The position numbers and the translations under genes were made by a program. From assembly GCA_963733035.1 (NCBI GenBank), contig CAVTBU010000008.1:320001-384000 (forward strand): DNA of 64,000 bases, read 5' to 3'. Positions 1,995 to 59,179 of the stretch are shown here, piece after piece (the first letter of the stretch is position 1; the number at the start of each line of letters is the position of its first letter). This stretch comes from Pirellulales bacterium. GTDB lineage: Bacteria; Planctomycetota; Planctomycetia; Pirellulales; PALSA-1355. The notes below the pieces were generated by a model. The model searched no databases. It saw nothing but the letters and a program-made list of their open reading frames with translations, and was not told the DNA's origin.

Positions 1995-2126
1995 GTCTGG
2001 CGGGTCCGATTGTGCCTAGCGGTCAAAGCAAGTGATATGGCCGATCTTGATGGAATCAAGGTTGCTTCGGTGTAATTCCAAGCAAGGCTAGAAGTAGGTC
2101 AAGACTTCCAACTTGGAGCTACTTCA

Positions 2127-2423
2127 ATGACAGACTGGCAAGACATGAAAGTAGGGGAACTCGCGGACGTGATAGGCGTCCCGGCCTGCAAGGTCTATAC
2201 CGCCTTGCTCCAACTGAGAAACCAACAGCGAGCCCAAGCAATGCAGAGTTGGGAACTGGTCGCCGCATTCGAGCGACATGGCGTGCCGAAGCAAGACCAC
2301 CGCGCCCTTACACTGCTTATCAGGCTGGGGAAAGCCTCACGTCGTTTGCAGGCGCGACGTGCTGAGTTTCAGTCTTGCCTAAACGAAATCTGGGGAATCA
2401 TAACCAAGCGTGAAAAGTGCTAG
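2127..2423 (+). CDS. Hypothetical protein, possible N-terminal HTH
   Basis: 98-aa ORF with GGAG upstream; MKVGELADVIGVPACKVY resembles an HTH. Confidence 0.5.
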   Translation: MTDWQDMKVGELADVIGVPACKVYTALLQLRNQQRAQAMQSWELVAAFERHGVPKQDHRALTLLIRLGKASRRLQARRAEFQSCLNEIWGIITKREKC

Positions 2424-2432
2424 AATTCAAGT

Positions 2433-2609
2433 ATGGATGAAGACCAGCAAGCCGAACTAGAAATGCACCTTGCCGCCGGAACCGACATTCCGACCGCCTT
2501 CGCGGCTGTCCAAGGCGACGAACCGCCGCAAGGGCGGGGCCGATTCGTGGCAACCACAATCGGCGTGATAGTGGCCTTGCTTTTTATGATTCTCTGGCTC
2601 TGCGCATGA
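2433..2609 (+). CDS. Small single-TM hypothetical protein (58 aa)
   Basis: Own translation MDEDQQAELEMHLAAGTDIPTAFAAVQGDEPPQGRGRFVATTIGVIVALLFMILWLCA; starts 9 bp after the previous stop. Confidence 0.5.
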   Translation: MDEDQQAELEMHLAAGTDIPTAFAAVQGDEPPQGRGRFVATTIGVIVALLFMILWLCA

Positions 2610-2685
2610 AAAACCCCAACTGGCCGAAGCCAGTTGGGGGCAATCATGGTGCAACAAACCATGCTTGTGCGACTGTTGCACAGCG

Positions 2686-3707
2686 CTATTCGATCTTGAA
2701 ACCGAATTGTGCCGCCTGTCTACCTCGGAAGGTGTCCAAGGGCCGGTCGTGTCGGGATTCGTCTCAAAGATTTCAGACTTTTGAACGTAATCGGTACTGC
2801 CGATGGTTTGGGCTGAGCCTTCCCCGGTCGTCGTGCCGCTCTTTGCTAGTAGCTTCACGTCTAGCGGGCTCGCGTCCGTTTGTCGGCAAACTGTGTTGAC
2901 CGTGACAGCAAAAACTTGACTGACGTTGACCAAGTTTTGATGGTCATACAAGTCGATGTCGCTGGCGGCGCCCGTCACGTAATCCGTGTCATCGTTAGCC
3001 GGGTTGTCATCGACGAGCGCATAGTTGTCGGTCCCGGTGCTCGGCGTACAGTCAACCGCACCATCCCCATTTGGAAAGGTGGTCTGAACCTTAAACGACC
3101 CAAGAAAGTCGTTGTTCGTCGCGCCGCTTTCGTCCAAAACGTAGAAGTCATCAAAATGAAACTGCACCCCAAGGATATTTGATCCCACGATGCGAATGGC
3201 ATTTGTATAGGCGTTGCTCGCGGGCTGGGTGTCGATGCCCGTGGCCGACAGCAGGGTTATGCCGTTTACACGCAATTCGTACTCGCCGGCCGAGTTGTCC
3301 ACCTTGACGCGCAACTCAACTGTTGCCCAAGTATCGACGGGCAAGACTTGGCCGCTAGTCGTGGCAAGATGCGTGGTGTCGAAATAGATCGACCATTCCC
3401 CGCTTGTTTGTCGCCGCAGATTGATTCCGACGTTGGAACCGTCGAGAAACTCGCAGATTCGTGACTCCGCAGCGATTGCGAATGCCGCTTTGAATCCGAA
3501 GCCACAGATTAGTGTTTGTGTCGCTGGAAGCGAGACACCACAAAAGTTAGCCGGGTCAAGGCTGACGGCTTTCCCGCTAATGCGACCATCACGCACACGC
3601 ATGAAGCTAGAGATACTGCCATCGGTCCATTTACGTGCCATACCGCTAGGCGTGACGTTATTCGTTGCACCATAGGCGTCAAAGCCGTCAATGAAGATGA
3701 TCGACAC
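2686..3707 (-). CDS. Phage structural/tail-like protein with ConA/LamG-like beta-sandwich (apparent frameshift near 2716)
   Basis: MSIIFIDGFDAY start; W.TVELRVKV...YELRVNG and FDDFYV motifs. An alternate frame gives the natural-looking end (NPDTTGPWTPSEVD)AAQFGFKIE*. Confidence 0.6.
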
Positions 3708-3812
3708 AGTTTAGGATTCCTTCCTTGGTTGGGGCTTGGCCGGTGGAGCCGCACACAAGACTTCGATGTAAACTATTTCTTTTTCTGACATGGTGATTCC
3801 ATTGTTGTGTAG

Positions 3813-3853
3813 AAATAAAAAGCGTCGGGGCACTGGGTGCGGTACCCCGACGC
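3813..3853 (-). terminator. Intrinsic terminator
   Basis: GCGTCGGGG/CCCCGACGC stem followed by TTTTTATTT on the minus strand. Confidence 0.6.
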
Positions 3854-3896
3854 ACTGTCGGGCTGCGAGGATTCACCCCGACAAGTTTCGCAACGG

Positions 3897-4673
3897 CTAG
3901 GCCGTTGTCTCTCCGCTGATTTCTTCGGGCTCAGCTTCGGGCTGTTCGATTGTCTCGCGTACTTCAGCGGCGGCTAGCTTCAGTTTCTCCGACTGTTCGG
4001 CCAGCGCATCCGACCTTTCCGTGAGCACGGCTGTGCGCTCAGCTTCAAAGGCAGCATTCGCTTTCCAGAATCGTTCCGTGTCGCCTGTCTCAGTGAGCGT
4101 CCGCAGTTCGCGGCGATAATTCTCCAACCACGGTTGACAAACCGGGTCGGGGTTTGTGCTGAGCCTCGCTATCCAAGCCTGTCCATACAGCTTCGCATCG
4201 ACTACTTCTGTCGAGTTCAACTTGGCTTGGTGAGCCTCTTTCCCCGCGAGTTGGACATCGAAGGCGTCTGCTGACTTAATGGCCATTTCCAATCGCATCT
4301 TGATGCCGGCATGTTCGCGGGGCGGTCGGTTGGCCAACTCGCGTTCCAAGAAATCCACTCTGGCGCGGTAGGGGTTGTCTGTCTCGGATCGTTGAGTTGA
4401 GCCTTGGCCGCCCCCGTCCGTTTTGATCTTTTCTCGCAACGGACGGGCATCCTTTACAAAATCGGTATTGCGAAGTAGCTCGGAGGGTGTCAACTCGCGG
4501 CCAATGGTCGCAAGGGCTCTGGCTTGCGTAGCCTCGACAATTGCATTCGTCTCACGCTGCATTTCACTCTGTTGTGCGCGCGCTTTGTCGCCTGGCTTGT
4601 TCTTGTCGAATTTGTAGGTTCGGCGTTGGCCGCCGATATACGAAACGAATGAATCACGATTCACGGTGTACAT
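3897..4673 (-). CDS. Hypothetical alpha-helical protein
   Basis: 258-aa ORF, Ala/Glu/Lys-rich with an acidic tail; no recognisable family. Confidence 0.75.
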   Translation of the reverse strand: MYTVNRDSFVSYIGGQRRTYKFDKNKPGDKARAQQSEMQRETNAIVEATQARALATIGRELTPSELLRNTDFVKDARPLREKIKTDGGGQGSTQRSETDNPYRARVDFLERELANRPPREHAGIKMRLEMAIKSADAFDVQLAGKEAHQAKLNSTEVVDAKLYGQAWIARLSTNPDPVCQPWLENYRRELRTLTETGDTERFWKANAAFEAERTAVLTERSDALAEQSEKLKLAAAEVRETIEQPEAEPEEISGETTA

Positions 4674-5476
4674 GGTTTTCCTCGATAGGGTAGTGTATCA
4701 GCCAACGCGCCTTCCGCTGGTACAGGCCGGCGTCGCGCATAGTCTTGGTCAAGAATGCTTAGGGTGCCATCCCACGATTCGGATTCGATTCCCGGCGCAA
4801 TGCTCCAATGGTTGACGCAATCACGGGCGTCTAGTGGTACATCGACGCCATCAAGATACTTGTGGGACTCGGATGGGTTGTGCTGGTGTAGGAACCAGAC
4901 ACGTTGCCAGAGCGATTCGAGCCCGGCATCTAGCTGCACGACAGGCGCGATCGACGCACAAGCGATAACCTCGCAACTTGGCGCGAGTGTGTGTGCATGA
5001 ATTTGATTTGCCACGTCTACCTTGATCATGGCTTCATGGAGATATGATAAATGCGTCCAACTCAAATCATGCGGGATGCGAACGATTTCTAGTTCGCTTC
5101 GTAGGATCGCAGCCCGCCCGATTCTCGGCTCTAAGTAATCGTTGAATCGACCGCGAATCGCGGCTAGGCCGAACCCGATTCGCTTGCGAATTGGAACGTG
5201 ACGCTTGGCAAGATCGGCTTGCCAAGTCGCTCGCCAGTATCTCCGCTCACGTTCCCAAGCAAACCTTCCGTCGGCAGTTCGTTTGCCATTGCACTTGGAC
5301 AGAGGCCCAAGCGTGCGAGGGTCAACTTGCTGGCAGCCGGGGAATCGTCGCGGCCAACGTGCAAGGTCGGCGAAATAGATGCGTCGGATTATCTTTGGCG
5401 TGCTTGGCTTCTGACCACGAGAATCTGGCGGGTCATCAATCTGGACAAGGCACAACGTCATCGGCGGCCCAGTCAT
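4661..5476 (-). CDS. Hypothetical protein
   Basis: 271-aa ORF overlapping the next gene in the same-strand operon. Confidence 0.6.
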   Translation of the reverse strand: MTGPPMTLCLVQIDDPPDSRGQKPSTPKIIRRIYFADLARWPRRFPGCQQVDPRTLGPLSKCNGKRTADGRFAWERERRYWRATWQADLAKRHVPIRKRIGFGLAAIRGRFNDYLEPRIGRAAILRSELEIVRIPHDLSWTHLSYLHEAMIKVDVANQIHAHTLAPSCEVIACASIAPVVQLDAGLESLWQRVWFLHQHNPSESHKYLDGVDVPLDARDCVNHWSIAPGIESESWDGTLSILDQDYARRRPVPAEGALADTLPYRGKPCTP

Positions 5477-5682
5477 AGGACCGGGCGAGCGGTATGGTAC
5501 TACAGCCGTCTAGCAAGGGGCCGGGGCGCACAGAATCGCAGGGGCTTGCCGTCGTAGAGATACTGCCATGTACTCATTTGCTTTCCTTGACGGCTTGTGC
5601 CTTTTGCTGAGCGGCTTTGCGTTCGGCTTCGCGGGCTCGCTCATTGGCTGCTGCATTGGCCCTTGCAATTTCTATCTCTCGT

Positions 5683-6239
5683 TTAGTAGGCATCGGAATA
5701 CCTCGCTTGACTGGCCGCGAGCGCGTCGCGGGCTTCGATGGTCTTACGTCGGCACGCTTCGACGCTGGGCCGCCAGCCGGGCGGTAAACCTATAGGCGGG
5801 GGCGTTGGTGCGGGCATGTTGCGAGTGCTCTTGAAAAGCCCCGGTTGCCATTTCTGCAAGCTTGTCAATCGCGCCGCTCTGGCGAATGACGATGGCCTCG
5901 AACGCACTTCGCAGAATCGATACGCAACTCGCGGCAACGTCCAAAGCGCCAGCCGCCTTAGCAGCGCGGATACAGCGACCTAAAGCATCGTCGGCCATTG
6001 GACTAGCCTCGCAAGTAATTGAGGCGAGCGGCCATGTCGCGGACGGCCAAGTCGTGGCTTGATCCGGCGGCACTGGTTAACTGGTTGAGGCAGTCAGTCA
6101 CCGGATCGTCGCTTGTCGGTGATGCGTCAATCAGAGCGAGCAATTGGAGTACGAGCATCGGGTATGCGGACTCCACGCTCCCGGCCGGGGATGCGCCTTG
6201 TGCATATCGCTGATACAGTTTAGTTGGGGCGTTTGCCAT
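5683..6239 (-). CDS. Hypothetical protein, apparently split by frameshifts
   Basis: MANAPTKLYQ... continues through successive overlapping frames (6003-6320, 5744-6073, 5683-5937); true end uncertain. Confidence 0.4.
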
Positions 6240-6316
6240 CGAAAACCTTTCAAGGAATGACGCGAAGTGTGAATGGCGGCCCGTTGCGTCGGATCGGTGC
6301 CGCTTATTTAAGAACG

Positions 6317-6613
6317 TCACGAGTGGGGAAATCTGGGCAGACTAAAGCCACTCGTGACGTGAGCCACACCACCCCCACGTCGGCTTTGGATGGTTGCCGT
6401 GCTACCGGCCGGCTCGGCAAGGCGGTCGTTACGCCTTGCTGCTTCGTTCGCGGGGATAGAGGGAGATCGTAGAGAGACACGCAAAGGCGTTGTGCTGTAA
6501 GCAGAATCTTTTAATGCTGCATCCTGACACGATTCGCAGATTCCTTCCCTTGTGTAAACTTTCAATTCGTTCGTTTTGCACACTGGGCAAAGGTCATCGG
6601 GCTTCACTGTCAT
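6317..6613 (-). CDS. Small CxxC...CxxC zinc-finger protein
   Basis: CPVC...CESC; start uncertain (possible ATGA coupling at 6597 with an indel). Confidence 0.45.
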   Translation of the reverse strand: MTVKPDDLCPVCKTNELKVYTREGICESCQDAALKDSAYSTTPLRVSLRSPSIPANEAARRNDRLAEPAGSTATIQSRRGGGVAHVTSGFSLPRFPHS

Positions 6614-7223
6614 ACCTCTTGAGGATCGCTTTCAATCGTTTTTTCACGTCGGCCTCTGTGAGCCCGAGATGCAAAGCCACGTCAGCCGGGGAGCCGCCAT
6701 GCTCGCATAGGCGGATAATTTGTTTGTCGGTTTCATCTTGGCAGGCGTGGTTGAGTGAGTCGCGCACTTCCAAGAGCGTTGTCGGATCGGCGACTTCGGA
6801 GCAGACGGTAAACTCATTCAGCGTGGTTGTGTCTGGCGGAAAATCATCCTCAATACCATCGAGCTTTCGACGTTTGAGCGTACGGGCAGAGTAGCCGCGC
6901 GGAACTGGCCACGCGGTTCGTCGAATTGCTGACTTTACGCACGTTGCGATATAGGCGTCTGGATTCTCGTGCTTTTTTCCGAGTAGAGCGTGTGCCGCTT
7001 CAACGACGGCAAGCGTTGCCTCGCCGTTCAACTCGTCGGCAAGGTATCGGCGGTCGGGATTCAGTCGCAGAAATTTTCGGACCTGCCCCAGAGCGGCCGT
7101 ACCATTGTCGAGGATAATTTTTTCGATCCATCTTTTCTCGGCGGCCGTTAGTGCAGCGAGAGCGTCATTGTCTTTGTTCTTCAGGTGGACAGCCCCGGTG
7201 CGGGGCGGGCGTAGATCATGCAT
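6594..7223 (-). CDS. Sigma-70-like factor (region 2 + region 4), element-encoded
   Basis: Region-2-like ADELNGEATLAVVEAA...YIATCVKSAIRR and region-4-like DKQIIRLCEHGGSPADVALHLGLTEADVKKRL; start approximate. Confidence 0.65.
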   Translation of the reverse strand: MHDLRPPRTGAVHLKNKDNDALAALTAAEKRWIEKIILDNGTAALGQVRKFLRLNPDRRYLADELNGEATLAVVEAAHALLGKKHENPDAYIATCVKSAIRRTAWPVPRGYSARTLKRRKLDGIEDDFPPDTTTLNEFTVCSEVADPTTLLEVRDSLNHACQDETDKQIIRLCEHGGSPADVALHLGLTEADVKKRLKAILKRYDSEAR

Positions 7224-7231
7224 GGTGTGAT

Positions 7232-7489
7232 TCACGGGAGAGGAGGGGCGGGCGGGTTCGCCTTTGACCGCTGAGAAGCAATCGAGACGCCATTGGTCGA
7301 GCGACCTTGGGCGGCAGCGAGACGTTGAGCTACTACGCGGTCGTGATCTTCGCGCGTGTGCAAGGTGCCGATCGGAAAAAGGCCATGCTTTGACTCGAAT
7401 CCGTAGAGAATCCAATGTTCCATCACGCCATCCGGGCGGGTGATGGTCTTGTCTGGATAGACCCAGGGCGGGGGATTGCGTTTGGACAT
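7232..7489 (-). CDS. Hypothetical protein (85 aa)
   Basis: MSKRNPPPWVYPDKTITRPDGVMEHWILYGF..., ending just before the sigma-like gene. Confidence 0.4.
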   Translation of the reverse strand: MSKRNPPPWVYPDKTITRPDGVMEHWILYGFESKHGLFPIGTLHTREDHDRVVAQRLAAAQGRSTNGVSIASQRSKANPPAPPLP

Positions 7490-7577
7490 GAGGCGAGCGA
7501 GGGGAGGGACGCGAGAGTGTGCGCAGTAAAGCGACAGTAAAGCATACGGCAAAAACCACCTTTTCTTCACCGCGTGG

Positions 7578-7627
7578 CAAAGAAAACGACCCGCCAGAGT
7601 CAAAGAACCATGACTCTTGGCGGGTCG
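7578..7627 (-). terminator. Probable intrinsic terminator
   Basis: CGACCCGCCA-GAGTCA/TGACTC-T-TGGCGGGTCG stem, then TTTTCTTT on the minus strand. Confidence 0.55.
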
Positions 7628-7659
7628 GGTGGATGCGTCACCGCGTCGATGCGGCTGGG

Positions 7660-8037
7660 CTAGTTGGCCGAAGGTATGCCAGCCCAGAAGCGGCCGTCGT
7701 GGTCGCCCGGAACAAAGATCAAGGCAAACGTGCGTCCTGGGTTGTGCCACGTTGCAGGGTCACAATGGAATTGGAGTCCGTTCGCTTTGGCAAATTCCTC
7801 ACATACTCGCAATCGGTCGGCGGTGACTGAGTATGGCTGTGCAACGAGACACGGCACGCCGCTATAGAGGTTAGTCGATCCCCAATGGTCGAGTAGCCCA
7901 CCACTCAACTGCCGCGAGATGTATTCCTCCACGGCTTCCACGTGCAAGTCTTGTGATTTTCGCACGGCTTGTTTGACGAACGTCGGAAACTTGGCTTCAT
8001 GGCCAGATTTGATCGGTGCAAAACATGGATGGCTCAT
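7660..8037 (-). CDS. Hypothetical phage-like protein
   Basis: 125-aa ORF with LDHWG...QPY...WHNPG motifs and an ATGA-coupled start. Confidence 0.65.
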   Translation of the reverse strand: MSHPCFAPIKSGHEAKFPTFVKQAVRKSQDLHVEAVEEYISRQLSGGLLDHWGSTNLYSGVPCLVAQPYSVTADRLRVCEEFAKANGLQFHCDPATWHNPGRTFALIFVPGDHDGRFWAGIPSAN

Positions 8038-8126
8038 AACTTCTCAAACTCCAAGGGACTATTGCTTGCCATCCATGTTGAAAGTGTGCTCCATACAATC
8101 GAACGTATTGCCGTTGCTGAACTCAT
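8034..8126 (-). CDS. 30-aa microprotein
   Basis: ATGA overlaps with the neighbours on both sides; MSSATAIRSIVWSTLSTWMASNSPLEFEKL. Confidence 0.45.
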   Translation of the reverse strand: MSSATAIRSIVWSTLSTWMASNSPLEFEKL

Positions 8127-10197
8127 GCGGCTGCCCCTTTCAAAAGGAAACCTGGGATGGTCTTAGTTTTGGAACCACGATTCGGTACTTGCCCGGCGAC
8201 AATATCTTCAAAAGGCAAAAGTGAACTCACCCGTTCTCTGCCAAGTTGTGACCGGACAGCAAGCGAACTCAACGTAAGCCCCTTGGGGTGTGCGGCGAGT
8301 ATCGCACGAATGGCCGTGATGTCTTTGTCATCCTCGCTCGCTTTCACTTCGGCGATTTCCTCTTGGTCACTGACAAGAGTTGGAATCCAGACACGCCCCC
8401 CTTCGTCAGAAAGTGACCGTTCCTCGATGTCAAGGTGATGCTCGCTTGCATGACCAGCACTGCCACCCAAAGTCATCCATAGTTTGTGTGGCTTGTTGGG
8501 AACGAATTTCGCGCGTCTGTTGAGCAGAATCCATTGCCGTGCGAATTCGCTGAAGCCCGACATTGCAAGGTCTTCGAGCGCCAACGCTTTCCCTGTTTGG
8601 CAGCCCCTTTGACGCTGTGATGTGCGATGGCCAGTTGAGCGCCGTGCTCTTGCATGACGAGTTTATTGCGCAATAGTTGGCCTTGCGCGAACACGTTGCT
8701 CGGGTCGCCCTCCCCGATGCAAAGATAGAACGGATCAATAATCAAAAACTCAATTCGATGACGCTCCAATGTCCGGGTAAGTTTGGCGAGAGACGATGGA
8801 TCATTAGCTTGTGGTAAATCTTCTGACCATTTAAGCGCGTCCAAATCACACGCTTCAAGTGTGTGACGCCAACCGATACGAATGGCCGTCTCTTGTAGTG
8901 TCTGGATGCCAGACTCGCCGCTCATAACCAAAGTTCGGCAGTGTTGGTTGACCGGGAAGTGACCCAGGAAAGGCGACTTCGACGCGAGCGAGATTGCAAG
9001 GTCTAGTAGAACTGAAGTTTTCATCGCCTTGCTTGCGCCACCAGCAACGAGTGGCTGCCTCGCGACAAGCACCTCGGGGATTAACCATTCAACGTCATAG
9101 TCGCCAGTCGCCAGTTCCCAAGATGAAATGACTTTGAATGTGTCGTCAGCGTCGGCGGCGTTGCTGGTAGTGGGCGGTTGCCAGCCATCCTGCCGTGCGA
9201 GGTAGAACAGCGTGGCAACCTTCGCGCCATCGTCTCTCCCGAAAGACTTCCAACGATTCTTGGTTTCGCCGGGCTTGTACTTGGCTGAACTCTTGGACAA
9301 ATCGTCCCACAACGGTAGGTATTTCTCTGTGCCATCACCGGCATCGTGGAGAGCGGAACCGATGCGAAGCCAATCGTGGCAATCGTCGAAACGCTTTGGG
9401 TGTAGTGCGGCAGCAGCCAAATAGATTTGTTGTGGCGTGTGGGAAGTCGAGGATAGCGAGTCGTACCAGTCTTCCTGTGGCTGGGCTGTTGGCAAATGGG
9501 CTGTTGGCAGCATGGCCACAAGCGTCTCGCGTGTAAGCGTCTCGCGAGTCGCGGGGCACGATATGATGGTTGACTGCCGGTGTGGACGATCTGGCGTGTT
9601 TGGCCCTTTCCGATTCCAGTTGCCGGTGCGTTCTCGCATTAGCTGACTCAGTGTCCACACTGAGTCGTCTACCGTGACCTCGGGTATGCTGAATTTGTCT
9701 CGAATGTGAAAGACAAATGCTTTGACAAGCTGGTTGTCTGCTACTGGCAGGTCACAGGCGAAGTAGGCTTGCACCCCGGAACCGCTATCGACAATCAGCG
9801 GCTCGGGGAACCCATGTTCCCGGCAGTATTGGATTGCCGCGTCGGCAACCGCTTTGGCAGCAGCACGTTCGCCGTCCGTGGCCGATACGCCTTTCGGTCG
9901 CACGGGGTCGAAGTCGAGCGGGAGGGTGCGAATTCTGACGATATGCTTGTCGCTGGTGCAAGCACCGATCCTGGCAGAATCATATCGGTTGGTGATGGGC
10001 ACCGAATCGTCAATCTGGTTGACCGTCCAGTGGACCCCACCACCCGCGAAGTCGCTCACGTCGTCTATCAGGCGGGCGGAGTCGCGGTAGAAGCCACTGA
10101 GGCGATTCCCCGCCATGTCATAGGGGCGGATTTCTACCGGGCCGGTCGGGTGTAGAAACTGGTGAGCGAGACGGACATCATCTGCTGGTGTGTTCAT
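8123..10197 (-). CDS. Primase-like/PriCT-2/AAA_25 (RepA-type) helicase fusion (apparent frameshift near 8588)
   Basis: N-terminal LDFD...DSGSGVQAYF; PriCT-2-like DWLRIGSALH...WDDLSKSSAKY...RWKSF; Walker A GASKAMKTS, Walker B IIDP, IAHH. The C-terminus continues in frame 8123-8584. Confidence 0.85.
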
Positions 10198-11890: not shown

Positions 11891-12106
11891 CGACATACAC
11901 GACCGCCGAAGTCGCCGGAATCTTGAAGGTGTCGCCGGACACGGTACGCGGCAAGATACTGTCGCGGCCAGCTTCAAGCGTTGAACTTGGCCGAGCCCGG
12001 CCATCGCCCGCAGTATCGCGTCACAGCCGAACAACTGGTAGCGTACCAGCGGCGGGCTACGGTCCTATTGCCTATCGCAATGGGACGACCGCGACGGTCA
12101 GCTTGA
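11887..12106 (+). CDS. HTH_17 excisionase-like protein (apparent frameshift near 11961)
   Basis: MTTYTTAEVAGILKVSPDTVRGKIL plus alternate frame RGQLQALNLAEPGHRPQYRVTAEQLVAY; ATGA-coupled, convergent on the integrase. Confidence 0.75.
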
Positions 12107-13336
12107 CCATTCGACCGGGGCGAAGCCGTCGCGGTCGTGTCGCTTCAGCTTTTCCTCGCCGATATACCAGCGGCGGACAAATGAACTGACTTCAACCAGC
12201 CGCTCAGCATACACACGCTGACGATACAGCCCCGGCATGGTCGAATCTTTGTGCCCCATGATATGGTTTGTGGCCGGCTGGTTGCCCGCTGCTGCCGCGA
12301 CCGTGGCAAACGTCCGCCGAAGCCCGTAGAAGCTGGTCGTGCCCTTCTTATATATGCCCAACTCAACTAGCAACTCTCGAAACGCTTCTGAAATGTGGTT
12401 GAAGCATTCGTCTTGATCGACCCATGCGCTGCCATCGGGGCGTAAGAATACAAGGTCACTGTCGCTCTTGGGACGAACCGCGACCGCTGCCTTGATGGTT
12501 TCCACGACTTCAGGCCAGAGCGGGGCGTGCCGTTCGGTGCCAGTCTTGAAACGTGGCTTGTGGTGCCAGCCGGCTTTAAGGTCCAACTCGCCGAATTGTA
12601 GGGTTCCGCAGTCGGCGTTGCTGAAGGCACACGACAACCCCAGCAAGATCATGGCCCCGAGTCCCGGGTCAGCCGCCTTGACCATTGCTTGAATTTCGTC
12701 AGCCGTGAAGTCTCGGGCACCGCGAGCTAGATTCAGCCGATGGAATTGCAGCCGGCCGGGCGGGGCTAATGCCTGTTGGTATCGAAGCGGCTTTTCAGTC
12801 AGCCCGTTTTCGACGATGTACGCAAACAGCATGGTTGCCCGGTTCAAGTGTCCCTTTTGCGTGGTCGGGTTGAGTAGACCACGTTTCTTGCGTGGCAGTC
12901 TGCGCTTCGGGTCTTTGGCCAGCCGCCTAGCTTTTCCCTTTTCGATGGCCCCGGCCATTCGCTGGAAGTCAGCCGCTTCAAGTGAAGCAAGCGGGGTGTT
13001 CTCATTGACACCCATCGTGAGCAATTCACACGTTCGCTTGTAATCGCTCAGACTTCGTGGGGTCAGCTTCCCGCCATCGACGCGAGCCTGTTTGAAGTCG
13101 AGAAAATGATTGATCGCTTCGCCCAGCGTATAGCCGCCGATAGGCTGTTGCTCGCGGCCGGCGTGAAGTCCGTCGCGCTGCTTCACGTATTCATCAAGCG
13201 CGGCTTGCCAGTCGGGCCATCGTCCGAAGTAGTGAATCTTGCCCCGTATCTTTTTGCAGTAGCGACCATCAACACGGAGGGACAACGGGAAGTCTTTGTA
13301 CGGTGGGTCTGGTAGGTCAGTGGCGCTCTTGAACAT
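12098..13336 (-). CDS. Tyrosine recombinase/phage integrase
   Basis: Arm-binding-like N-terminus; KT, YGLRRTFAT, IMGH and GLY motifs; adjacent to a tRNA. Confidence 0.92.
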   Translation of the reverse strand: MFKSATDLPDPPYKDFPLSLRVDGRYCKKIRGKIHYFGRWPDWQAALDEYVKQRDGLHAGREQQPIGGYTLGEAINHFLDFKQARVDGGKLTPRSLSDYKRTCELLTMGVNENTPLASLEAADFQRMAGAIEKGKARRLAKDPKRRLPRKKRGLLNPTTQKGHLNRATMLFAYIVENGLTEKPLRYQQALAPPGRLQFHRLNLARGARDFTADEIQAMVKAADPGLGAMILLGLSCAFSNADCGTLQFGELDLKAGWHHKPRFKTGTERHAPLWPEVVETIKAAVAVRPKSDSDLVFLRPDGSAWVDQDECFNHISEAFRELLVELGIYKKGTTSFYGLRRTFATVAAAAGNQPATNHIMGHKDSTMPGLYRQRVYAERLVEVSSFVRRWYIGEEKLKRHDRDGFAPVEWSS

Positions 13337-13467: not shown

Positions 13468-13487
13468 ATCATTCAACTTAGGCGAAG

Positions 13488-13560
<73 letters not shown>

Positions 13561-52489: not shown

Positions 52490-54288
52490 CTACGTCTTTG
52501 TCTTGATCCCCTCCAGCGGACCGGCGTCTGGTGCCCCCGTCGCGTCTTGCTTTTCGCTCGCGGCTGGCGCAGGCTTGGGATCGGCGGCTTTATCGGTCGC
52601 GGTCGCCCCGGCGGCATCTCCCTCGGGGGCATCGGGCTTGGCATCGACATCCATGGTCTTGCCGACGCCCTCAATAAATTGGTAACCAGAGTAGATGGGC
52701 AAGTGCCGGTAGTAAACTTCAAGCATGTAGATGGAGAGGCAGGTCATATATAGGCGACCGTTCCATCCGCCCCACTTGTCTCCCACGTTGTCCCAACTAC
52801 CCGCTTCGGGGCCTTCCTTGACTTGCTTCTCGGGGACGATCTGGCGCATATTTTTATTCCAGTCGTCCCAAATCGTACCTTCCATATGATGAGCGGCCTG
52901 GGTGGCATAGTACCAGTAGTAGACGTCGTGGTCGACGCCCAGGTCGTACGCGATGGGATTGTTCTGAACCAGCGAGGAAATGCCGTCGACGAGTCTGGGA
53001 TCGTCCTGCCTCCAGCCCAGGTATTGGCGGCACAATAGCCCCTCGGCGCAAACCGCCTTGGACTCCTGCTTGTCGAGCAGATAACCGTAGCGGCGCCCGT
53101 CATCGATCTGCGCGGCGTCCAAATAGTCGCTGACACGGTTCAACACGTCCCGGGGCACGCTCAGCTTGGCCATCCTCGCGCTTTTGTAGCGCCATCACAA
53201 ACCAGCCAGTTACCGACGTATCCGAACCCCGTCGCGGACTGTATCGCCAACCACCCTCCTGCTGGTCCTGGGCCTGCACCGCAAAGGCGATAGCCCGTTC
53301 CGCCGGCGCGAAGCTGCGAGTCGCCGGTCATGCCATAGAGCTCGCAGAGGGCGATGGTGCCTTGCGCATGGGTATAAAGCATTTGGGTTTCCAGTCCCAT
53401 CCGGCCGCTAAACAAACCATCGGCGCGTTGCATCTTTAACAAAGCTTCCCATCCATGGGCCACGACTTTGGAATACTTTCCCTCACGGTGCGTCTCGCCG
53501 TGCCCCTGAAACGCTAGCAGCGCCATGGCCGTGGCGGCCGGCACGTTCTCCGATGCGGCTTCGCCTTCGTACGGGCCCTGCAAGCTCCAACTGCCGTCCT
53601 TTTTCTGTTGTTTGGCCAACCACGCCAGTCCAGCTTCGACGGCCTTTTCGGTCGCCGCCGTGCCGCCATAACGTTTCAAAAGCGCGTTGCGAGTGCCCGC
53701 TTGGCGCCCTTTGAGCGCCATGCCGATCGGGGCCATTTGAATCGTGGTGGTCGCGGCAGGCGCCGTGGGTCGAACCGCCAGTTCCATCGGCGCTAGCTCC
53801 GGGGGCACCGCCAAGGGGTCTTCGACAGGCGTCAAATCCGGCGGCGTGATGATTTGTTCCGGCAGCATCTCCAGTTCGGTTGACTCGCTTTCCAATACCG
53901 AGGCGTCGTCCATCTGTTCGCCCAAATCCTCGGCATAAGTGACTTCCACCTGCAAATTGTTGGACCGCGCACGCACGCTAAACGCGAGTAAACCCAACAC
54001 GATCAAGAGCAGCATGTGAAAGACGGTGCTGACAAGCCAAGCCGGAGCATTCCGCAGGATCTCCCTGAGATCCGTATCCTCCTCGTCCTCCAGGTCCTCC
54101 TCGTCGTCCGCGTCCGGCAGGTCCCCTGCCGTGCGCGGCTTTAGCAGAATCGGGCGATTCGAATATGCGCCGCCAGGACCTCGCGGCGTGCCTGGGTAGG
54201 TCGGGCCCGCAGGCAGCGGGCGACTACCGCCCGCGCCGGAACGCGGCGGCATGCTTTGGCCAGGTCGATAGTCCTCAGGCACGGCCAT
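52490..54288 (-). CDS. Prenyltransferase/squalene oxidase repeat membrane protein (apparent frameshifts near 53305 and 53180)
   Basis: AWLVSTVFH TM; GLAWLAKQQKKDGSW; intermediate frame GGWRY...DTSVTGW; YYWYYATQ; LEVYYRHLP. Confidence 0.85.
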
Positions 54289-54681
54289 ATTAATCGCTCC
54301 ACCCTTTCTGGCCCCCTGGCGCGCATGGCAAGCGCCCCGCCGCCGGCATGCGGCCGGAATGGCCATCGGATGGCAATAAAGAGATGCTACTTCTCCAAGA
54401 ATATCCCAACTTGGAGTTTAGCAACTACAAACTTACGGCGCCAAGCAAGATGACGCGCCAGCCAACGATCCCTGCGGCGATTTGAGTGCCGAACCGACGC
54501 GACGTGTCCCCGCCCGAGCCAATTTAGCCGATTTTGACGAGCAATCCGGCCGCACGCCCAGGTCGATCGCCCCTCTTCCAAGCGTCCGGCCCTCGACGGA
54601 ATCACGCAGTGGCGTTACAATCAGGTTTTGGCAACGCGAGTGGGCGTTGGACAGCTAGCCTGCCGAAAAACAAATACACAT

Positions 54682-54752
<71 letters not shown>

Positions 54753-54755
<3 letters not shown>

Positions 54756-54798
54756 TTCACATAACCCCCGGGTCGCAAGCGCGGCCGCGGGGGTTTTG
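54753..54798 (+). repeat. Repeat R1: tRNA 3' end plus terminator-like hairpin
   Basis: CTATTCACATAACCCCCGGGTCGC-AAGC-GCGGCCGCGGGGGTTTTG. Confidence 0.8.
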
Positions 54799-54860
54799 TC
54801 TGCTTATATAAGAAGGGGATCTGTTGATCGCCGCGCGCTGCAACGAAAGGCCACGGTGGA

Positions 54861-56280
54861 TCACCGCCGCCCCCTTGTGGCATTTCCGTCTGAAGTGCGT
54901 GGAGATCCAGGCGGAATTGGAGCTTGTCGGATCTGCGAGTATTGGTCGACAAACGCCTTGACTTCTCGGTAGAACTTCTCGGGTTCCTCGTTCATGGGAT
55001 TGTGGGCGCTGTGGTCGAAGATAACGATGCGCTTGTCTGTGGCGGGAGTGCCCAGCACATCGTACGCGTTCTGCGCCAACTCGACCGGCGTTGCTCCGTC
55101 GTGTTTGCCCCACAACAAAAGAGTTGGGACGGTAATCTTGTGCATGTCGGGCGTGTAGTCGGTTGCGAGCGAGTTGCGAAATACTCGCTTGCTGTGCATT
55201 AGGTTAATACGCTCAGTCAGGAAGCTGGCGCGAAAAAAGATAGTGCAGCTCGCCACGGAAGTCGGTCCGTTCCGGCGCCTGGCCAAAATCGTAACCGCCG
55301 GCCGGGCCGATGTACTTATCCCAGAGTTGAGTTTCATACCAGTTTTCTCGTCGAACGTGGTGTGCTGCGTATTCGCGGGCTTCGTCCCAAATTTGACGTT
55401 CCTCCTGATTCCCTCCTCTGTCGATTCGCTGTTCGGCCCGCTCTTTGAGCCACGCGATCGAAAGCTTCCAGCAGAGCGGCTCGTTATGGGCACCGTCGAC
55501 TTCAATCCAACCGGCGACCTGGCCCTCGCCTGCTGCGTCGATGAGATACCTGGTGCCCAGTTCGCCGCCGGCGCTATGGCCCATGAGGAAGAGAGCTTTC
55601 GGGCGATATTGCTGTTGGCAAAGGCGCACTACCTGGCGCAGGTCATCAACGCAGTCGTCGACGGTTGCCACGGCGTCGGCCGGCGTGCCGGTCGAATTCC
55701 CAGATGCCCTTTGGTCCCAATAGACGATGGCGAATTCTTGTTCCAGCCTCCTAAACCCTCCGCTCAGGTGCTTCTCGATCGCATTGCCGCCCGGGCCGCC
55801 ATGCAGAAAAAGTAGCATGATTCCGGTGTCGGCATTGCCCTTAACCCAGAGGGGCATCCGCGCCCAACCATGCTGGACAACTTTGAAGTCGTCGAAATGC
55901 CCGGCAGGACGAGATTGGTGCCGCCAGATGAGACCGCACACGAGCACCGCGGCGAGCGCGACAACCGCAGCGCAATACAAGACCTTGCGATTGACCACTT
56001 GGAAGAGGCCGTAGATGACAAGGCCAGCGACAAAGTATGCCACCATTGAAAAATAGACATGGTTGTAAAGGTCATTTACCGGATCGTTCCACAAGTGTTG
56101 AGAGAGCTGGAACGAGAAAAAGAACGGCAATTCGAGCGGTACAAGTGTGACTCGAACGGGAAGTGCAAGTTCCGCGCCAAACCATGCGCGCAGTGCGATC
56201 ATAAGCAGACCTAGCAGCGATGCGACGCCGCCCGCCAGCATGAGCCGCAGGATATGGCCACGGACTTTGAACTTCGTCAT
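54861..56280 (-). CDS. Membrane-anchored alpha/beta hydrolase (apparent frameshift near 55230)
   Basis: N-terminal TM helices; HGGPGG, WDQR, GHSAGG nucleophile elbow, WGKHD and SAHNP motifs. Confidence 0.85.
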
Positions 56281-56488
56281 GCGCTCGACCTGATCAGATG
56301 AATTCGCAGCGCGTTCCTTTTGCATTCGTCATTCCCAGCAGATTCTTGGATGTGGTTTCCAGGGACCTCGGCCCTGGCATTCCCCAACACCCCAGAGCAG
56401 GACGGCATGGTCTGGTTGACTTCACCTCGGGCAGCCAGGGTAAAATGGGCGGGGATTCACTGACGGTTTTTGGCTGGTATTCGGGATA

Positions 56489-56603
56489 ATGAAGCGCCGT
56501 AGATAATCGGCGTTTTGGAGAGCGCTCGAAGGGAGTGCGGCCCGCTCTACTCTCAAATAACTCCCGGGTCGCGAAATGCGGTCGCGGGTCGCGGGGGTTT
56601 TTT
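56489..56603 (+). repeat. Repeat R2 (diverged copy of R1 plus upstream block shared with R3)
   Basis: AGCGCTCGAAGGGAGTGCGGCCCGCTCTACTC...ATAACTCCCGGGTCGC...GCGGGGGTTTTTT. Confidence 0.75.
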
Positions 56604-56717
56604 GGAGACATTTCGGGTCCGTGAGGATCAGCAACCGCCAATTTCCGCCTAAACTCCACTCGTAGAATGTCGCAACGACGTAAACGGCCCCTTGTGTCCG
56701 TTCGAAAGGGGAAAACG

Positions 56718-57164
56718 ATGGATACAAAGGCTTTGCCCCTCGGGACTCTTGCGCTATCCATTTTGCTCATCGCGCAGGCCGTCGCGGCGGATGATCCATT
56801 GACCCACCTTGCGGGGACCTGGAAGGTCGTGGGCGCAACCGTGGACGCCAATCCGATCAATGATCCGCAGATCACGGGGGCAAAGCTGACGTTCAGTGGC
56901 GACAGTTTGTTGATGGAACCAGGCGACGGCAGTCAGGACGAACGCCACCGGATCAAGCTGGATGCCGACTCCGATCCGCTGTCGTATCACTCCGAACGCG
57001 TCCAACCGGCTGACCGCCCGCAAAACGGCTGGACGATCTTTGAGGTTAAAGGCGATCGGCTTCGTATGGCCTTTTTCGATGCGCTCAGAGGCCGTCCCAA
57101 GTCCTTCGAGCCCCAGCCGAAGCTTGTGGTTCTCGAACTGAGGAAGGTTCCTAGCGACCCGTAA
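56718..57164 (+). CDS. TIGR03067-like planctomycete exported domain protein
   Basis: Signal peptide; LAGTWKVV, IFEVKGDRLRMA and RPKSFEP motifs. Confidence 0.8.
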   Translation: MDTKALPLGTLALSILLIAQAVAADDPLTHLAGTWKVVGATVDANPINDPQITGAKLTFSGDSLLMEPGDGSQDERHRIKLDADSDPLSYHSERVQPADRPQNGWTIFEVKGDRLRMAFFDALRGRPKSFEPQPKLVVLELRKVPSDP

Positions 57165-57273
57165 ACGCCGCTGGTCGCCGCGGACAATCGACGGGTTTGT
57201 GACCGGTCGCGACTGTCGCGGCGCGGATCGACGGGGCCCGACAGCCTCGTCTCCCTCGCACTAGCTAGGACTT

Positions 57274-57380
57274 ATGAAGTCGTTTCGATCACCCGGATTC
57301 TAGACAGCGCTTGAAGCGAGTGCCGGCCCACTCTATTCGCATAACCCCCGGGTCGCCCTGATCGCGGCTACAGGGTTCTT
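57274..57380 (+). repeat. Repeat R3
   Basis: AGCGCTTGAAGCGAGTGCCGGCCCACTCTATTCGCATAACCCCCGGGTCGC; 23/24 identical to 54753-54776. Confidence 0.8.
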
Positions 57381-57601
57381 GTTGTACTTTACGGCTCACT
57401 GGCTCGAGCAAGCCTGAAAAGTGCACGAAATAAACTTCCCGCGTGCGTGGGCATCGAGTCAATCGTACGGTTCCCACAACTCGGTGTAATCATTGACGCA
57501 AATGACGGCAATCGCGGACCAAACCATCCACAGGTTGCCGGCCGAACTTTGCCTGGGTTAAGAAGTCACTCGGAAGGTTGAAGCGTTTCGCGGGCTTGCC
57601 T

Positions 57602-59179
57602 TCAATTGGGCCGGCTCATGTGTATCAGCCAGTCCTCGTTCAATTCAACGTGCTTGATTGCGTAGCGGCGGTAGGTGTAGGTCAGGTGCAACCGGCCGTC
57701 GGTCGATTGGATGATCGAAGGGTAAGAGTACTCACCCGGATTCGACTCCAACCGCAGTGGCTTCTCCCAGGTTCGGCCTTCGTCGATTGATCTGGTGATC
57801 GACAGCGGCGTACGGCTGGTCTGCGAGTCGTTATAGACCAACACCAGGTGGCCATTGGTCAACCGCGTCATGGTGATGCCGGAGTCAGGGTTCTCCAGTG
57901 GCGTGTCAACCGCCCTGTTCCAGGTCAGCCCACCGTCGGAGGATTCCACCTGGGTGATGTGCCGGGCGTGGCGCAGCAGCGCTAAGATCGAATTGTCGCA
58001 ACGCTGGACCACGGCCGGCTGGCTGCCACCGTCGGTGAAGCCGGCCCGTTGCCAAGTCGAGGTGTCGCTGGGCAGTCGCAAGAAGTGGGAGCCCTCGACC
58101 TTACCCTGCAGACCTTCCACTGGCAGCAGCAGCGTCTTGTCAGCCAACACAATCGGTGGATTGCGCGGCACACACCACAACTCCTCGTCGAACATCGGGC
58201 GGTCTTCGCTCCAGGTCACGCCCTGATCGGTCGAAGTTCTCGCAAACAGCCGACAACGGTCCCAACCGCCGCCTCGCCGCATCGGCCGCGTTCCTTCCAT
58301 CCGGCACCAGACGATCCACAGTCGCTCGGTCGTGTCGCGAAAAATAACGCCGTTGCCCGGCGGGGCCACGGCGTTCTGCAGCAACACCTGTGGCGTGCTC
58401 CAGCGTTTATCGTCGGGCCGCTTTCGAGCCAGAAAGATCGCCTGATCGTCGGCGCTCTCATAGCTGCCGCCGTACCATAGGCACAGCAGGTCGCCGTTAG
58501 CCGCCTCGCAGATTGTCGAGCAGTGGTGTGCCGGCGCCAGCGGAATGCTTTCAAAGACCTGCTCGGCCGCAAACCAAATCGAACCGTAGGGGTTGTCGGA
58601 TTTTGGAGCTGAGCCAGGCTTGTCGAGTGGCGTGCCCTCGACGGGCATCGTGGACGTGGCGAGCGGTCGTTTGGCCAGGACGCTTTCGATGGCGGCGGCG
58701 AACCCGCGCCGCGCCGCGCCGTCTTGCAGTCCACCGTGGTAGACCAAAACGCCGCGTCGGTCGAGCAGATAGACCTCCGGTACAAAACGAGCGCCGAAGT
58801 GTTTCACCGTTTTCCCCTCTGGGTCGCGATAGAGCGGAAAGATCGTGCCCCGCGCCTGGGCAAACGCCCGTAGCTCGTCGCCGTTCTCCTCCGGGTTGGG
58901 GCAGACACCCACGAATAGCACGCCGCGGAGGCGGTGCTTGCGATAGAGCTGATTGAGGTCGGCCATAACCGAATCGGTCGTTTCACTCCGGCTCGACAGA
59001 AAGACCACCGCCGTGGCAGGACGCTCCGCGTAGTTGTCCATCACGATCTGTGGACCAAGCACCGATGTCAGTGTGACCGGGCCCGCCGCGGAGCCAGGCT
59101 CCAACGCCCGAGCCGTGACGGGGCCGAGGGTCAGCAATGCCGCGCCAGCGCAAACAATGTGTCGCAAGGTGTCGTTCAT
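57602..59179 (-). CDS. Redoxin-like domain + BNR/sialidase-like domain fusion
   Basis: FPLYRDPEG...FVPEVYLLD...YHG; Asp boxes STDQGVTW, SSDGGLTW, SIDEGRTW; EYSYPS. Confidence 0.85.
   Translation of the reverse strand: MNDTLRHIVCAGAALLTLGPVTARALEPGSAAGPVTLTSVLGPQIVMDNYAERPATAVVFLSSRSETTDSVMADLNQLYRKHRLRGVLFVGVCPNPEENGDELRAFAQARGTIFPLYRDPEGKTVKHFGARFVPEVYLLDRRGVLVYHGGLQDGAARRGFAAAIESVLAKRPLATSTMPVEGTPLDKPGSAPKSDNPYGSIWFAAEQVFESIPLAPAHHCSTICEAANGDLLCLWYGGSYESADDQAIFLARKRPDDKRWSTPQVLLQNAVAPPGNGVIFRDTTERLWIVWCRMEGTRPMRRGGGWDRCRLFARTSTDQGVTWSEDRPMFDEELWCVPRNPPIVLADKTLLLPVEGLQGKVEGSHFLRLPSDTSTWQRAGFTDGGSQPAVVQRCDNSILALLRHARHITQVESSDGGLTWNRAVDTPLENPDSGITMTRLTNGHLVLVYNDSQTSRTPLSITRSIDEGRTWEKPLRLESNPGEYSYPSIIQSTDGRLHLTYTYRRYAIKHVELNEDWLIHMSRPN

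Follow-up and report, generated by a model that had tools for sequence, protein, structure and literature searches.

Behind the initiator tRNA gene (tRNA-fMet) of a Pirellulales bacterium, two very small gene units appear to have been inserted one after the other. The site lies in a 64,000-base stretch of assembly GCA_963733035.1 (contig CAVTBU010000008.1, positions 320,001 to 384,000 of the forward strand), which we call the window and whose numbering is used below unless a contig position is given; the genome that carries it is referred to as G000. A repeat that starts in the last bases of the tRNA and runs on into its trailer occurs three times (R1, R2 and R3) and marks off a unit of ~1.8 kb (R1 to R2) and another of ~0.8 kb (R2 to R3), each with one cargo gene. 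On balance, R1 to R3 are probably att-type junctions of two successive site-specific insertions, and the units would be recombinase-less elements akin to cis-mobilisable elements (CIMEs).

The repeat itself is confined to this one locus. An initial annotation of the window had described it as a 24-base sequence that recurs with 23 of 24 bases identical at 57333 and, more diverged, at 56547-56572, and both copies were recovered here. The repeat shares the three terminal bases of the tRNA and matches it at 8 of 13 further ones. A 20-mer repeat family in the window has three members, at 54757, 56553 (90% identity) and 57337 (95%), and a 17-base core with up to three mismatches likewise matches three times where 0.18 matches are expected, a number that none of 100 shuffled sequences reached. 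With up to two mismatches allowed, the whole G000 genome (6,645,485 bases) contains these same three copies only, all in forward orientation, while the reversed core, used as a control, is found nowhere; nor does a further copy follow in what is left of the variable region of G000 (57.4 to 69.2 kb, extending past the window). Since the core occurs just three times in 6.65 Mb, and always at this locus, a dispersed repetitive extragenic palindromic (REP) or terminator family, which the annotation had named as the finding that would undo its proposal, was ruled out. Its statement that every copy runs into a hairpin stands for R1 and R2 (z-scores of -5.06 and -4.27), where a T run follows, and falls for R3, where the hairpin has decayed (z -1.09). 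The R1 hairpin is kept with the tRNA in six other genomes (G019, G023, G016, G002, G005 and G022). On inspection of the sequence, the hairpin flanks read AAC...GTT, in boxes that depart from the attC consensus, and no attC-type family is present in the Rfam scan results for the window and 11 related loci.

Preceding R2 and R3, and absent at the tRNA, is the colinear block that had also been pointed out from the window alone. It extends over ~70 nt, is 68% identical between the two copies (70 columns) and is called X here; with the core and the hairpin it makes up an imperfectly palindromic module of ~115 nt. Between families, X is 41-68% identical. The block contains a motif of 6-7 bp, GGGTWAT and its inverse, and in the form GGTWAY/RTWACC this amounts to 28 copies in 15 X regions, against 3.5 in shuffled sequences (maximum 13 in 300 shuffles). 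Its positions are regular, with a forward copy at +10 in 10 of the 15 regions, an inverse copy at +28 in 9 of them, an inverse copy at +80 inside the core (ATAACC) and, in family f30, an extra forward copy at -12. In the best-kept X copies, the motifs at +10 and +28 make up a pair of inverted 10-base arms with 6 bases between them. The short repeated motifs, their fixed spacing and the absence of RNA structure point to a protein-binding DNA site. Judged by its sequence, X is most likely the protein-binding arm of a recombination site, and the protein that binds there would be a recombinase.

Other identities for X were tried and rejected. As a structured RNA it fails, in that RNAalifold predicts 0 pairs on 15 sequences and single-sequence folds are no better than those of shuffled sequences in three of five cases; a closing helix GCGGG/CCCGC, which recalls the tRNA acceptor stem, is paired in 65.7% of cases against 64.6% after shuffling and lacks covariation. 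Rfam, at E≤10, does not match X in the window, where the tRNA is the sole match, or in 11 related loci. A hidden Markov model (HMM) of 15 X blocks finds no match among the 96 tRNAs of G000 (tRNA-fMet is one of them) with the threshold relaxed to E≤1000, save for a single match to tRNA-Asp (E 0.61) that we judge to be chance, so that X is not a tRNA relic. A minus-strand coding start (M.R..L.S.S.GIPGNHP.FIT in G005 and G046) is broken by 1-base insertions or deletions in G017, G019 and G014b. Finally, an antiterminator pairing of X with the 5' half of the hairpin fits family f1 by eye and fails in G094 and family f30.

Features of the tRNA-fMet locus in the window.
Feature	Position	Strand	Remarks
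tRNA-fMet, anticodon CAT, intact; anchor of the array	54682..54755	+	Rfam tRNA 61 bits; ARAGORN 54681-54756
R1, 24-base core (last 3 tRNA bases and trailer); putative attL-like junction	54753..54776	+	
R1 hairpin followed by T run, tRNA terminator	54759..54799	+	-30.1 kcal/mol, z -5.06; inverted repeat I19
Unit 1 cargo, membrane-anchored alpha/beta hydrolase in two frames (55213-56325, 54861-55505)	54861..56325	-	Pfam Hydrolase_4
X block of R2 (alpha type)	56484..56549	+	covariance model 109.7 bits; nearest is the X of G006, 78%
R2, diverged core; putative junction of unit 1 and unit 2	56547..56572	+	
R2 hairpin followed by T run, terminator-like site	56559..56605	+	-28.5 kcal/mol, z -4.27
Unit 2 cargo, secreted TIGR03067-domain protein	56718..57164	+	NCBIfam 51.5 bits, cut-off 40.15; alternative start 56667
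X block of R3	57270..57335	+	covariance model 99.3 bits
R3, core; putative attR-like distal junction	57333..57356	+	23/24 identity to R1
R3 hairpin, decayed	57339..57382	+	-16.5 kcal/mol, only z -1.09

The space into which these units fall differs from genome to genome. Upstream of the tRNA, the flank is syntenic in four of the five relatives tested. Downstream, synteny with genomes of the same genus resumes at about contig position 389,200, which is 5 kb past the end of the window and leaves a gap of 14.5 kb after the tRNA; in G002 this gap measures 4.8 kb, in G003 26.7 kb. What follows tRNA-fMet is therefore a variable region, of which the two G000 units make up the first 2.6 kb. The genes between the tRNA and X vary in every genome: beside the hydrolase and the TIGR03067 protein of G000 there are a 23S_rRNA_IVP four-helix protein in G006 and in G014, a glyoxalase in G014, WapI, HicB and DUF4440 proteins in G082, a DUF1186/SEC-C protein in G067 and proteins without a known family elsewhere. 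These Pfam assignments cover 83 of 202 open reading frames (ORFs) of at least 65 aa; in two further sets, Pfam was applied to 34 of 69 and 43 of 64. The ORFs were in each case picked by length and position. The gene nearest to X lies within ~0-130 bases of it and is a different one in every case. The expectation formed from the window alone, that relatives would carry different genes between the same repeats, was thus borne out within conserved synteny.

Genus g3 provides the most direct view of the insertion boundaries. In five of its genomes (G023, G005, G019, G043 and G048) the tRNA hairpin is followed at 10-60 bases by the start of an 81-aa gene. In G046 this gene (87% identical) begins right behind an X-core instead, separated from the tRNA hairpin by a 314-aa ORF and X; G005 has two paralogues, each behind a core-hairpin, one following the tRNA and the other following X. 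The boundaries of insertion in this genus coincide with the trailer repeat, in agreement with the earlier proposal that the units enter at the tRNA end. The simplest account would be that a gene together with X was inserted into the trailer, that the core was duplicated at both ends and that X was brought by the insert. The trailer and hairpin that follow X moreover match those of the genome's own tRNA and not a sequence common to all genomes, at 15 of 15 bases in G094 (46 bases at 80%), as the CCCCGCAG type in family f30 and as the CCCCCGGG type in family f1. A genome-specific match of this kind would look like the identity segment common to attP and attB. As to the 81-aa protein, whose sequence starts MTIEQIRSIYEGQPF, it has no Pfam or NCBIfam match (L017:580-822, L024:546-782, L055:3705-3941 and others); in genus g3 its gene is generally the first one after tRNA-fMet, and it occurs also in G006 and was not found in G000. 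In family f30, two genera (L071/L075 of G082 and L072/L076 of G061) share a gene pair flanked by X-type modules, a HicA-like gene and a 73-aa ORF that are 78-88% identical.

The distribution of the module was followed with a covariance model built from five copies, in three scans of overlapping genome sets from the family (33 genomes), the order (151) and the class (151). Full modules are present in 7 of the 33 family genomes (two in G000, one each in G005 and G006, two in G014, one each in G017, G019 and G046) and in five more genomes, which belong to three further families of the same order (G112, G082, G061 with two, G094 and G067), while G276 has an X block without the hairpin. Matches of any kind were obtained in 13 of the 151 genomes of the order sample and 4 of the 151 of the class sample, several of them to the tRNA trailer alone. 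The distribution of X is patchy, and no genome in the three scans holds more than two modules. In the ten genomes with both on one contig, the distance from tRNA-fMet to the X downstream of it is 0.4-2.5 kb, and the two point the same way. A degenerate 21-base X pattern, run over genome contigs, gave nine further loci that are likely chance matches, as the covariance model recognised none of the eight on which it was run (L083-L090); the ninth, L091, was left out of account.

The core is also found outside these genomes. Nineteen metagenome loci (L092-L110; 12 distinct sequences) contain a 22-base core identical to that of R3. In three it stands directly behind a tRNA-Met(CAT), and in one (L103) behind a displaced tRNA fragment, 140 bases after the tRNA. 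Five cores follow a conserved non-coding block, Y, that G017 has as well and that includes a 10-bp inverted repeat, and one follows yet another, different sequence. Two follow a block Z, 3 kb after tRNA-Met, with one large gene in between that differs between the loci (a Ser/Thr kinase in L108 and a DUF1254/DUF1214 protein in L096). Rfam does not match the Y or Z blocks at E≤1, and no integrase was found within 5 kb of cores of the Y or Z type among the 43 of 64 ORFs searched with Pfam. Y was considered as the end of a gene and rejected, in that the frame which ends at the core's TAA stays open over no more than 13-97 codons, is Arg-rich and has no conserved start. R3 thus has the widespread form of the trailer, as would fit a displaced original trailer.

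tRNA genes are classic landing sites of integrase-bearing islands, and tRNA-fMet is no exception here. In G139 (L078, G139:C121:2500-19500) a 15-kb island lies behind this gene, with a 448-aa tyrosine integrase adjoining the tRNA and a cargo that includes a DUF3987/Toprim primase, an Eco57I-type restriction-modification gene and a HipA-like kinase; its far end consists of a displaced tRNA fragment (T loop to 3' end) followed by an f1-type trailer and hairpin. G003, of the same genus (L020, G003:C10:157000-170000), encodes an integrase of 425 aa immediately after tRNA-fMet, whose final 44 bases are repeated 11 kb away. Because both genomes carry islands at it, tRNA-fMet is a proven integration target.

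Within the G000 units, no trace of a recombinase was seen. Pfam finds none in 54757-57390; of the 16 matches to PF00589 in the whole genome none falls between the tRNA and the point of resumed synteny; and six-frame tblastn of 16 recombinases against 12 tRNA-to-X intervals (22 kb, from 10 genomes and 2 metagenome contigs) returned nothing at E<0.1. The queries were 11 recombinases of G000, the G139 and G003 integrases, two fragments from G094 and a serine recombinase from G061. Nor does any G000 protein exceed the cut-off of the integron integrase family TIGR02249 in this 92% complete genome, the best reaching 81 bits against 265. The earlier description of the units as single-gene and free of recombinases accordingly holds, although the one gene of unit 1, the hydrolase, is split over two frames. 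The use of host Xer recombinases at dif was considered and rejected, the dif-like candidate of G000 (C7 near 375105, minus strand), located with a short pattern, being unlike X or the core.

A few recombinase genes were noted elsewhere. In G061 (L079, G061:C93:31000-45000), ~750 bases separate an X module from the gene (2241-4145) of a large serine recombinase of 635 aa, behind which come a deaminase, helicases and the R subunit of a type I restriction system. In G094 (L073, C1:3931960-3951959, ~2029-10100), a tyrosine recombinase pseudogene in two frames lies ~420 bases behind X on the minus strand, with the integron integrase family TIGR02249 as its best NCBIfam match (119 + 62 bits); next come about 10 small plus-strand ORFs between imperfect palindromes of ~87 bases, GCGAAC...GTTCG, 4 full and several partial. 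From its sequence, this region looks like a decayed chromosomal integron beside the tRNA-fMet spot. The window itself encodes at 12098-13336, on the minus strand, a 412-aa ORF with a Phage_integrase match beside a tRNA-Phe gene (13487-13560, minus strand), and no displaced fragment of this tRNA-Phe is present within the window.

Of the cargo genes, the hydrolase has its membrane part at the N terminus, and the Hydrolase_4 profile is divided between its two ORFs, with profile positions 29-111 in 55213-56325 and 182-238 in 54861-55505. The frame is broken near a homopolymer run, and the gene is either a frameshifted pseudogene or the product of a homopolymer assembly error. Upstream of the tRNA, a conserved gene at 52490-54366 on the minus strand is also divided in G000, into two ORFs of 227 and 401 aa, where relatives have open frames of 595-679 aa, so that a second possible frameshift or assembly error lies near the first. 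As this neighbour is split too, a real frameshift in the hydrolase and an assembly error are indistinguishable. The TIGR03067 gene has a counterpart (E≤1e-8) in 1 of 32 other family genomes, at a different locus. The two cargo genes are on opposite strands. With a G+C content of 57.4% in unit 1 and 60.2% in unit 2, against 60.3% for the genome, base composition gives no clear foreign signal for either.

We tentatively propose the following course of events at this tRNA. The units would have been inserted successively at the 3' end and trailer of tRNA-fMet by site-specific recombination, each consisting of one gene, an X arm of ~70 nt borne by the insert, a copy of the trailer core and a hairpin. 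R1 would then be the junction next to the tRNA, R2 the one where the two units meet, and R3 the distal one, beside the displaced original trailer, and the units would be CIMEs stacked by accretion. The copies in G000 would now be inactive, or mobilisable only by a helper. The split hydrolase and the decayed R3 hairpin fit relics as well as they fit active cassettes. Plain decay of large islands is disfavoured because all 12 intervals lack a recombinase remnant, because the gene adjacent to X, within ~130 bases, differs each time and because X is kept across families.

Several observations weigh against this proposal. The repeat in G000 overlaps the tRNA by only 3 bases, while the catalogued tRNA islands of PMC4383910 (Table 1) have their crossover in the T-stem or anticodon region. 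The exact motif of X is missing from the R2 region and, in the R3 region, present in the core only, so that the motifs of G000 are degenerate, and the X modules of G061 sit off the contig that bears the tRNA. The family, order and class samples yielded no element that combines X with a recombinase. The integrase-bearing element with the same end block, which the initial annotation had listed as something that would support it, did not appear in viral contigs (three pattern scans), plasmids or phages (blastn) either, with 0 matches to X. Junction reads gave no more: neither circular nor empty-site junctions over 53500-58500, nor alternative junctions, joints or bridging of whole units, were seen in four soil-metagenome DNA runs from one study (Logan contigs, depth about 2-5). 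Random internal deletion of large islands would rarely leave a different gene ~0-130 bases from X. In addition, the conservation of X exceeds that of a neutral relic; at 41-68% identity between families, some function is therefore still selected, which could be other than recombination.

A different reading of the same features takes the X-core-hairpin to be the recombination module of dedicated recombinase-less cassettes, which a recombinase encoded elsewhere captures and shuffles, with the tRNA trailer serving as attI. It draws on the small size of the units (0.4-3 kb), their one to three genes and the placing of a gene 0-130 bases before a conserved module, as well as on cargo of the kind met in integrons, i.e., toxin-antitoxin genes, an immunity protein, a glyoxalase, SnoaL/DUF4440 proteins and proteins without a known family. 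The 12 of 12 intervals without a recombinase, the conservation of X with its repeated motif across families, the Y and Z blocks ahead of an identical 22-base core, with differing single large genes in L108 and L096, and the AAC...GTT flanks of the hairpin, as in attC, would all suit it. However, an array of more than two X modules was not met in the scans of 33, 151 and 151 genomes, the cassettes point in different directions, with the hydrolase encoded on the minus strand, and the same cargo is never found in two array positions, except for the one f30 pair. No intI exceeds the cut-off in G000, no candidate helper is linked and no circular junction was seen; the motif copies of G000 are degenerate and its R3 hairpin is decayed. 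Because no array goes beyond two modules, the units differ in orientation and intI is absent from G000, and because helper, circle and empty site were unseen and the G000 copies are worn, an active integron-like system is disfavoured; of the mobilisation in trans and integron-like gene-capture array that the initial annotation had suggested we found no sign. We regard this reading as doubtful. Its wider form, in which the ~115-nt module is the site of an undescribed cassette class that depends on a trans-acting recombinase, uses the initiator tRNA trailer across the order and has Y and Z as sister modules, seems to us unlikely.

X might instead be a host non-coding element, either a small RNA or a regulatory module at a 3' or 5' end, that closes with a tRNA-like terminator. 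In that event the repeats would stem from local duplication, gene conversion would keep them alike and the variable genes would have arrived by unrelated routes. The persistence of X in four families, its constant tRNA orientation, the intrinsic-terminator-like hairpin that always follows it and the plus-strand genes that start just past the hairpin in several genomes are what such an element would lead one to expect. The absence of any Rfam match (E≤10), of an RNAalifold consensus and of covariation in the closing helix speaks against it, as do the patchy distribution and the fact that X travels with the inserted gene in G046; nor was a conserved promoter seen upstream of X by eye. We hold this to be rather unlikely. 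It is very improbable that R2 and R3 are degenerate tandem copies of tRNA-fMet with its terminator. Short likenesses to a tRNA do occur (GTTCGAA, CCCGCYCCA and the GCGGG/CCCGC pairing), and G033 has two tRNA-fMet copies on one contig, 3 kb apart, but the HMM of X misses all 96 tRNAs of G000 apart from the chance tRNA-Asp (E 0.61), the Rfam tRNA model does not match X, and X blocks are far closer to each other across families than to the tRNA.

The insertion of CIME-like units at the tRNA trailer, which remains the reading that we favour, has precedents of several kinds. That att-flanked recombinase-less units accrete at a tRNA gene is, as a principle, already known: CIMEs and tandem accretion are described for the 3' end of tRNA and housekeeping genes, as in elements of the ICESt1/ICESt3 type and the streptococcal tRNA-Lys islands (PMC5704250). 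The G000 locus shares with them the direct repeats of att type, the lack of integration and transfer genes, the tandem stacking at one target and an intact target gene. It differs in that described CIMEs are decayed integrative conjugative or integrative mobilisable elements of several kb, with a known helper and integrase-type att sites, whereas the units in G000 measure 0.8-1.8 kb, hold a single gene and have a conserved arm of only ~70 nt, their parent element or helper was not found, and nearly the entire repeat falls outside the gene, in trailer and terminator. The islands catalogued by Islander are marked at their ends by a regenerated tRNA or tmRNA gene and a displaced 3' fragment (PMC4383910). 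Here too the tRNA target is intact and a direct repeat marks the far end, and the islands of G139 and G003 in the same tRNA are of this classical form; the G000 units, by contrast, have no integrase, and X rather than a tRNA fragment precedes the distal repeat.

Integron gene cassettes with their attC sites (PMC4889954) offer a further comparison. The likeness consists in small one-gene units that look promoter-less and are followed by an imperfect palindrome of ~115 nt, in small accessory cargo and in the integron-like array with an integrase pseudogene that stands beside X in G094. On the other side, intI is lacking beside the array and, over the cut-off, in the whole genome, the units are not co-oriented and number at most two modules, the X site is conserved in sequence and not only in structure, and the first site is a tRNA trailer instead of an attI. 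There are also the integrative mobile elements exploiting Xer (IMEX), recombinase-less elements that use host XerCD at dif and integrate serially at one chromosomal site. They resemble the G000 units in lacking a recombinase, in their serial arrangement at one site and in a recombinase encoded elsewhere, and differ from them in the target, which is here the tRNA trailer, the dif-like candidate of G000 being unlike X and the core. In a small literature check, we found no description of the placement of the repeat almost entirely in trailer and terminator, of a conserved 70-nt arm with repeated motifs, of units of single-gene size or of their recurrence in several families of a phylum that has been little studied.

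The tRNA-fMet site of these bacteria thus gathers very small one-gene units together with a conserved arm, and the pattern recurs over families while the cargo differs. If the units are relics, they would illustrate cleanly how inserts accrete at a tRNA trailer, in a form that island finders which need an integrase and a tRNA fragment would miss. If they are still mobile, they would represent a minimal mechanism of gene capture in a phylum about whose mobile elements there is little knowledge, and the X-core-hairpin would be a ready marker for accessory genes as well as for the responsible recombinase. Should the cassette class prove true, integrons would be joined by a second system of gene capture, one anchored at a tRNA.

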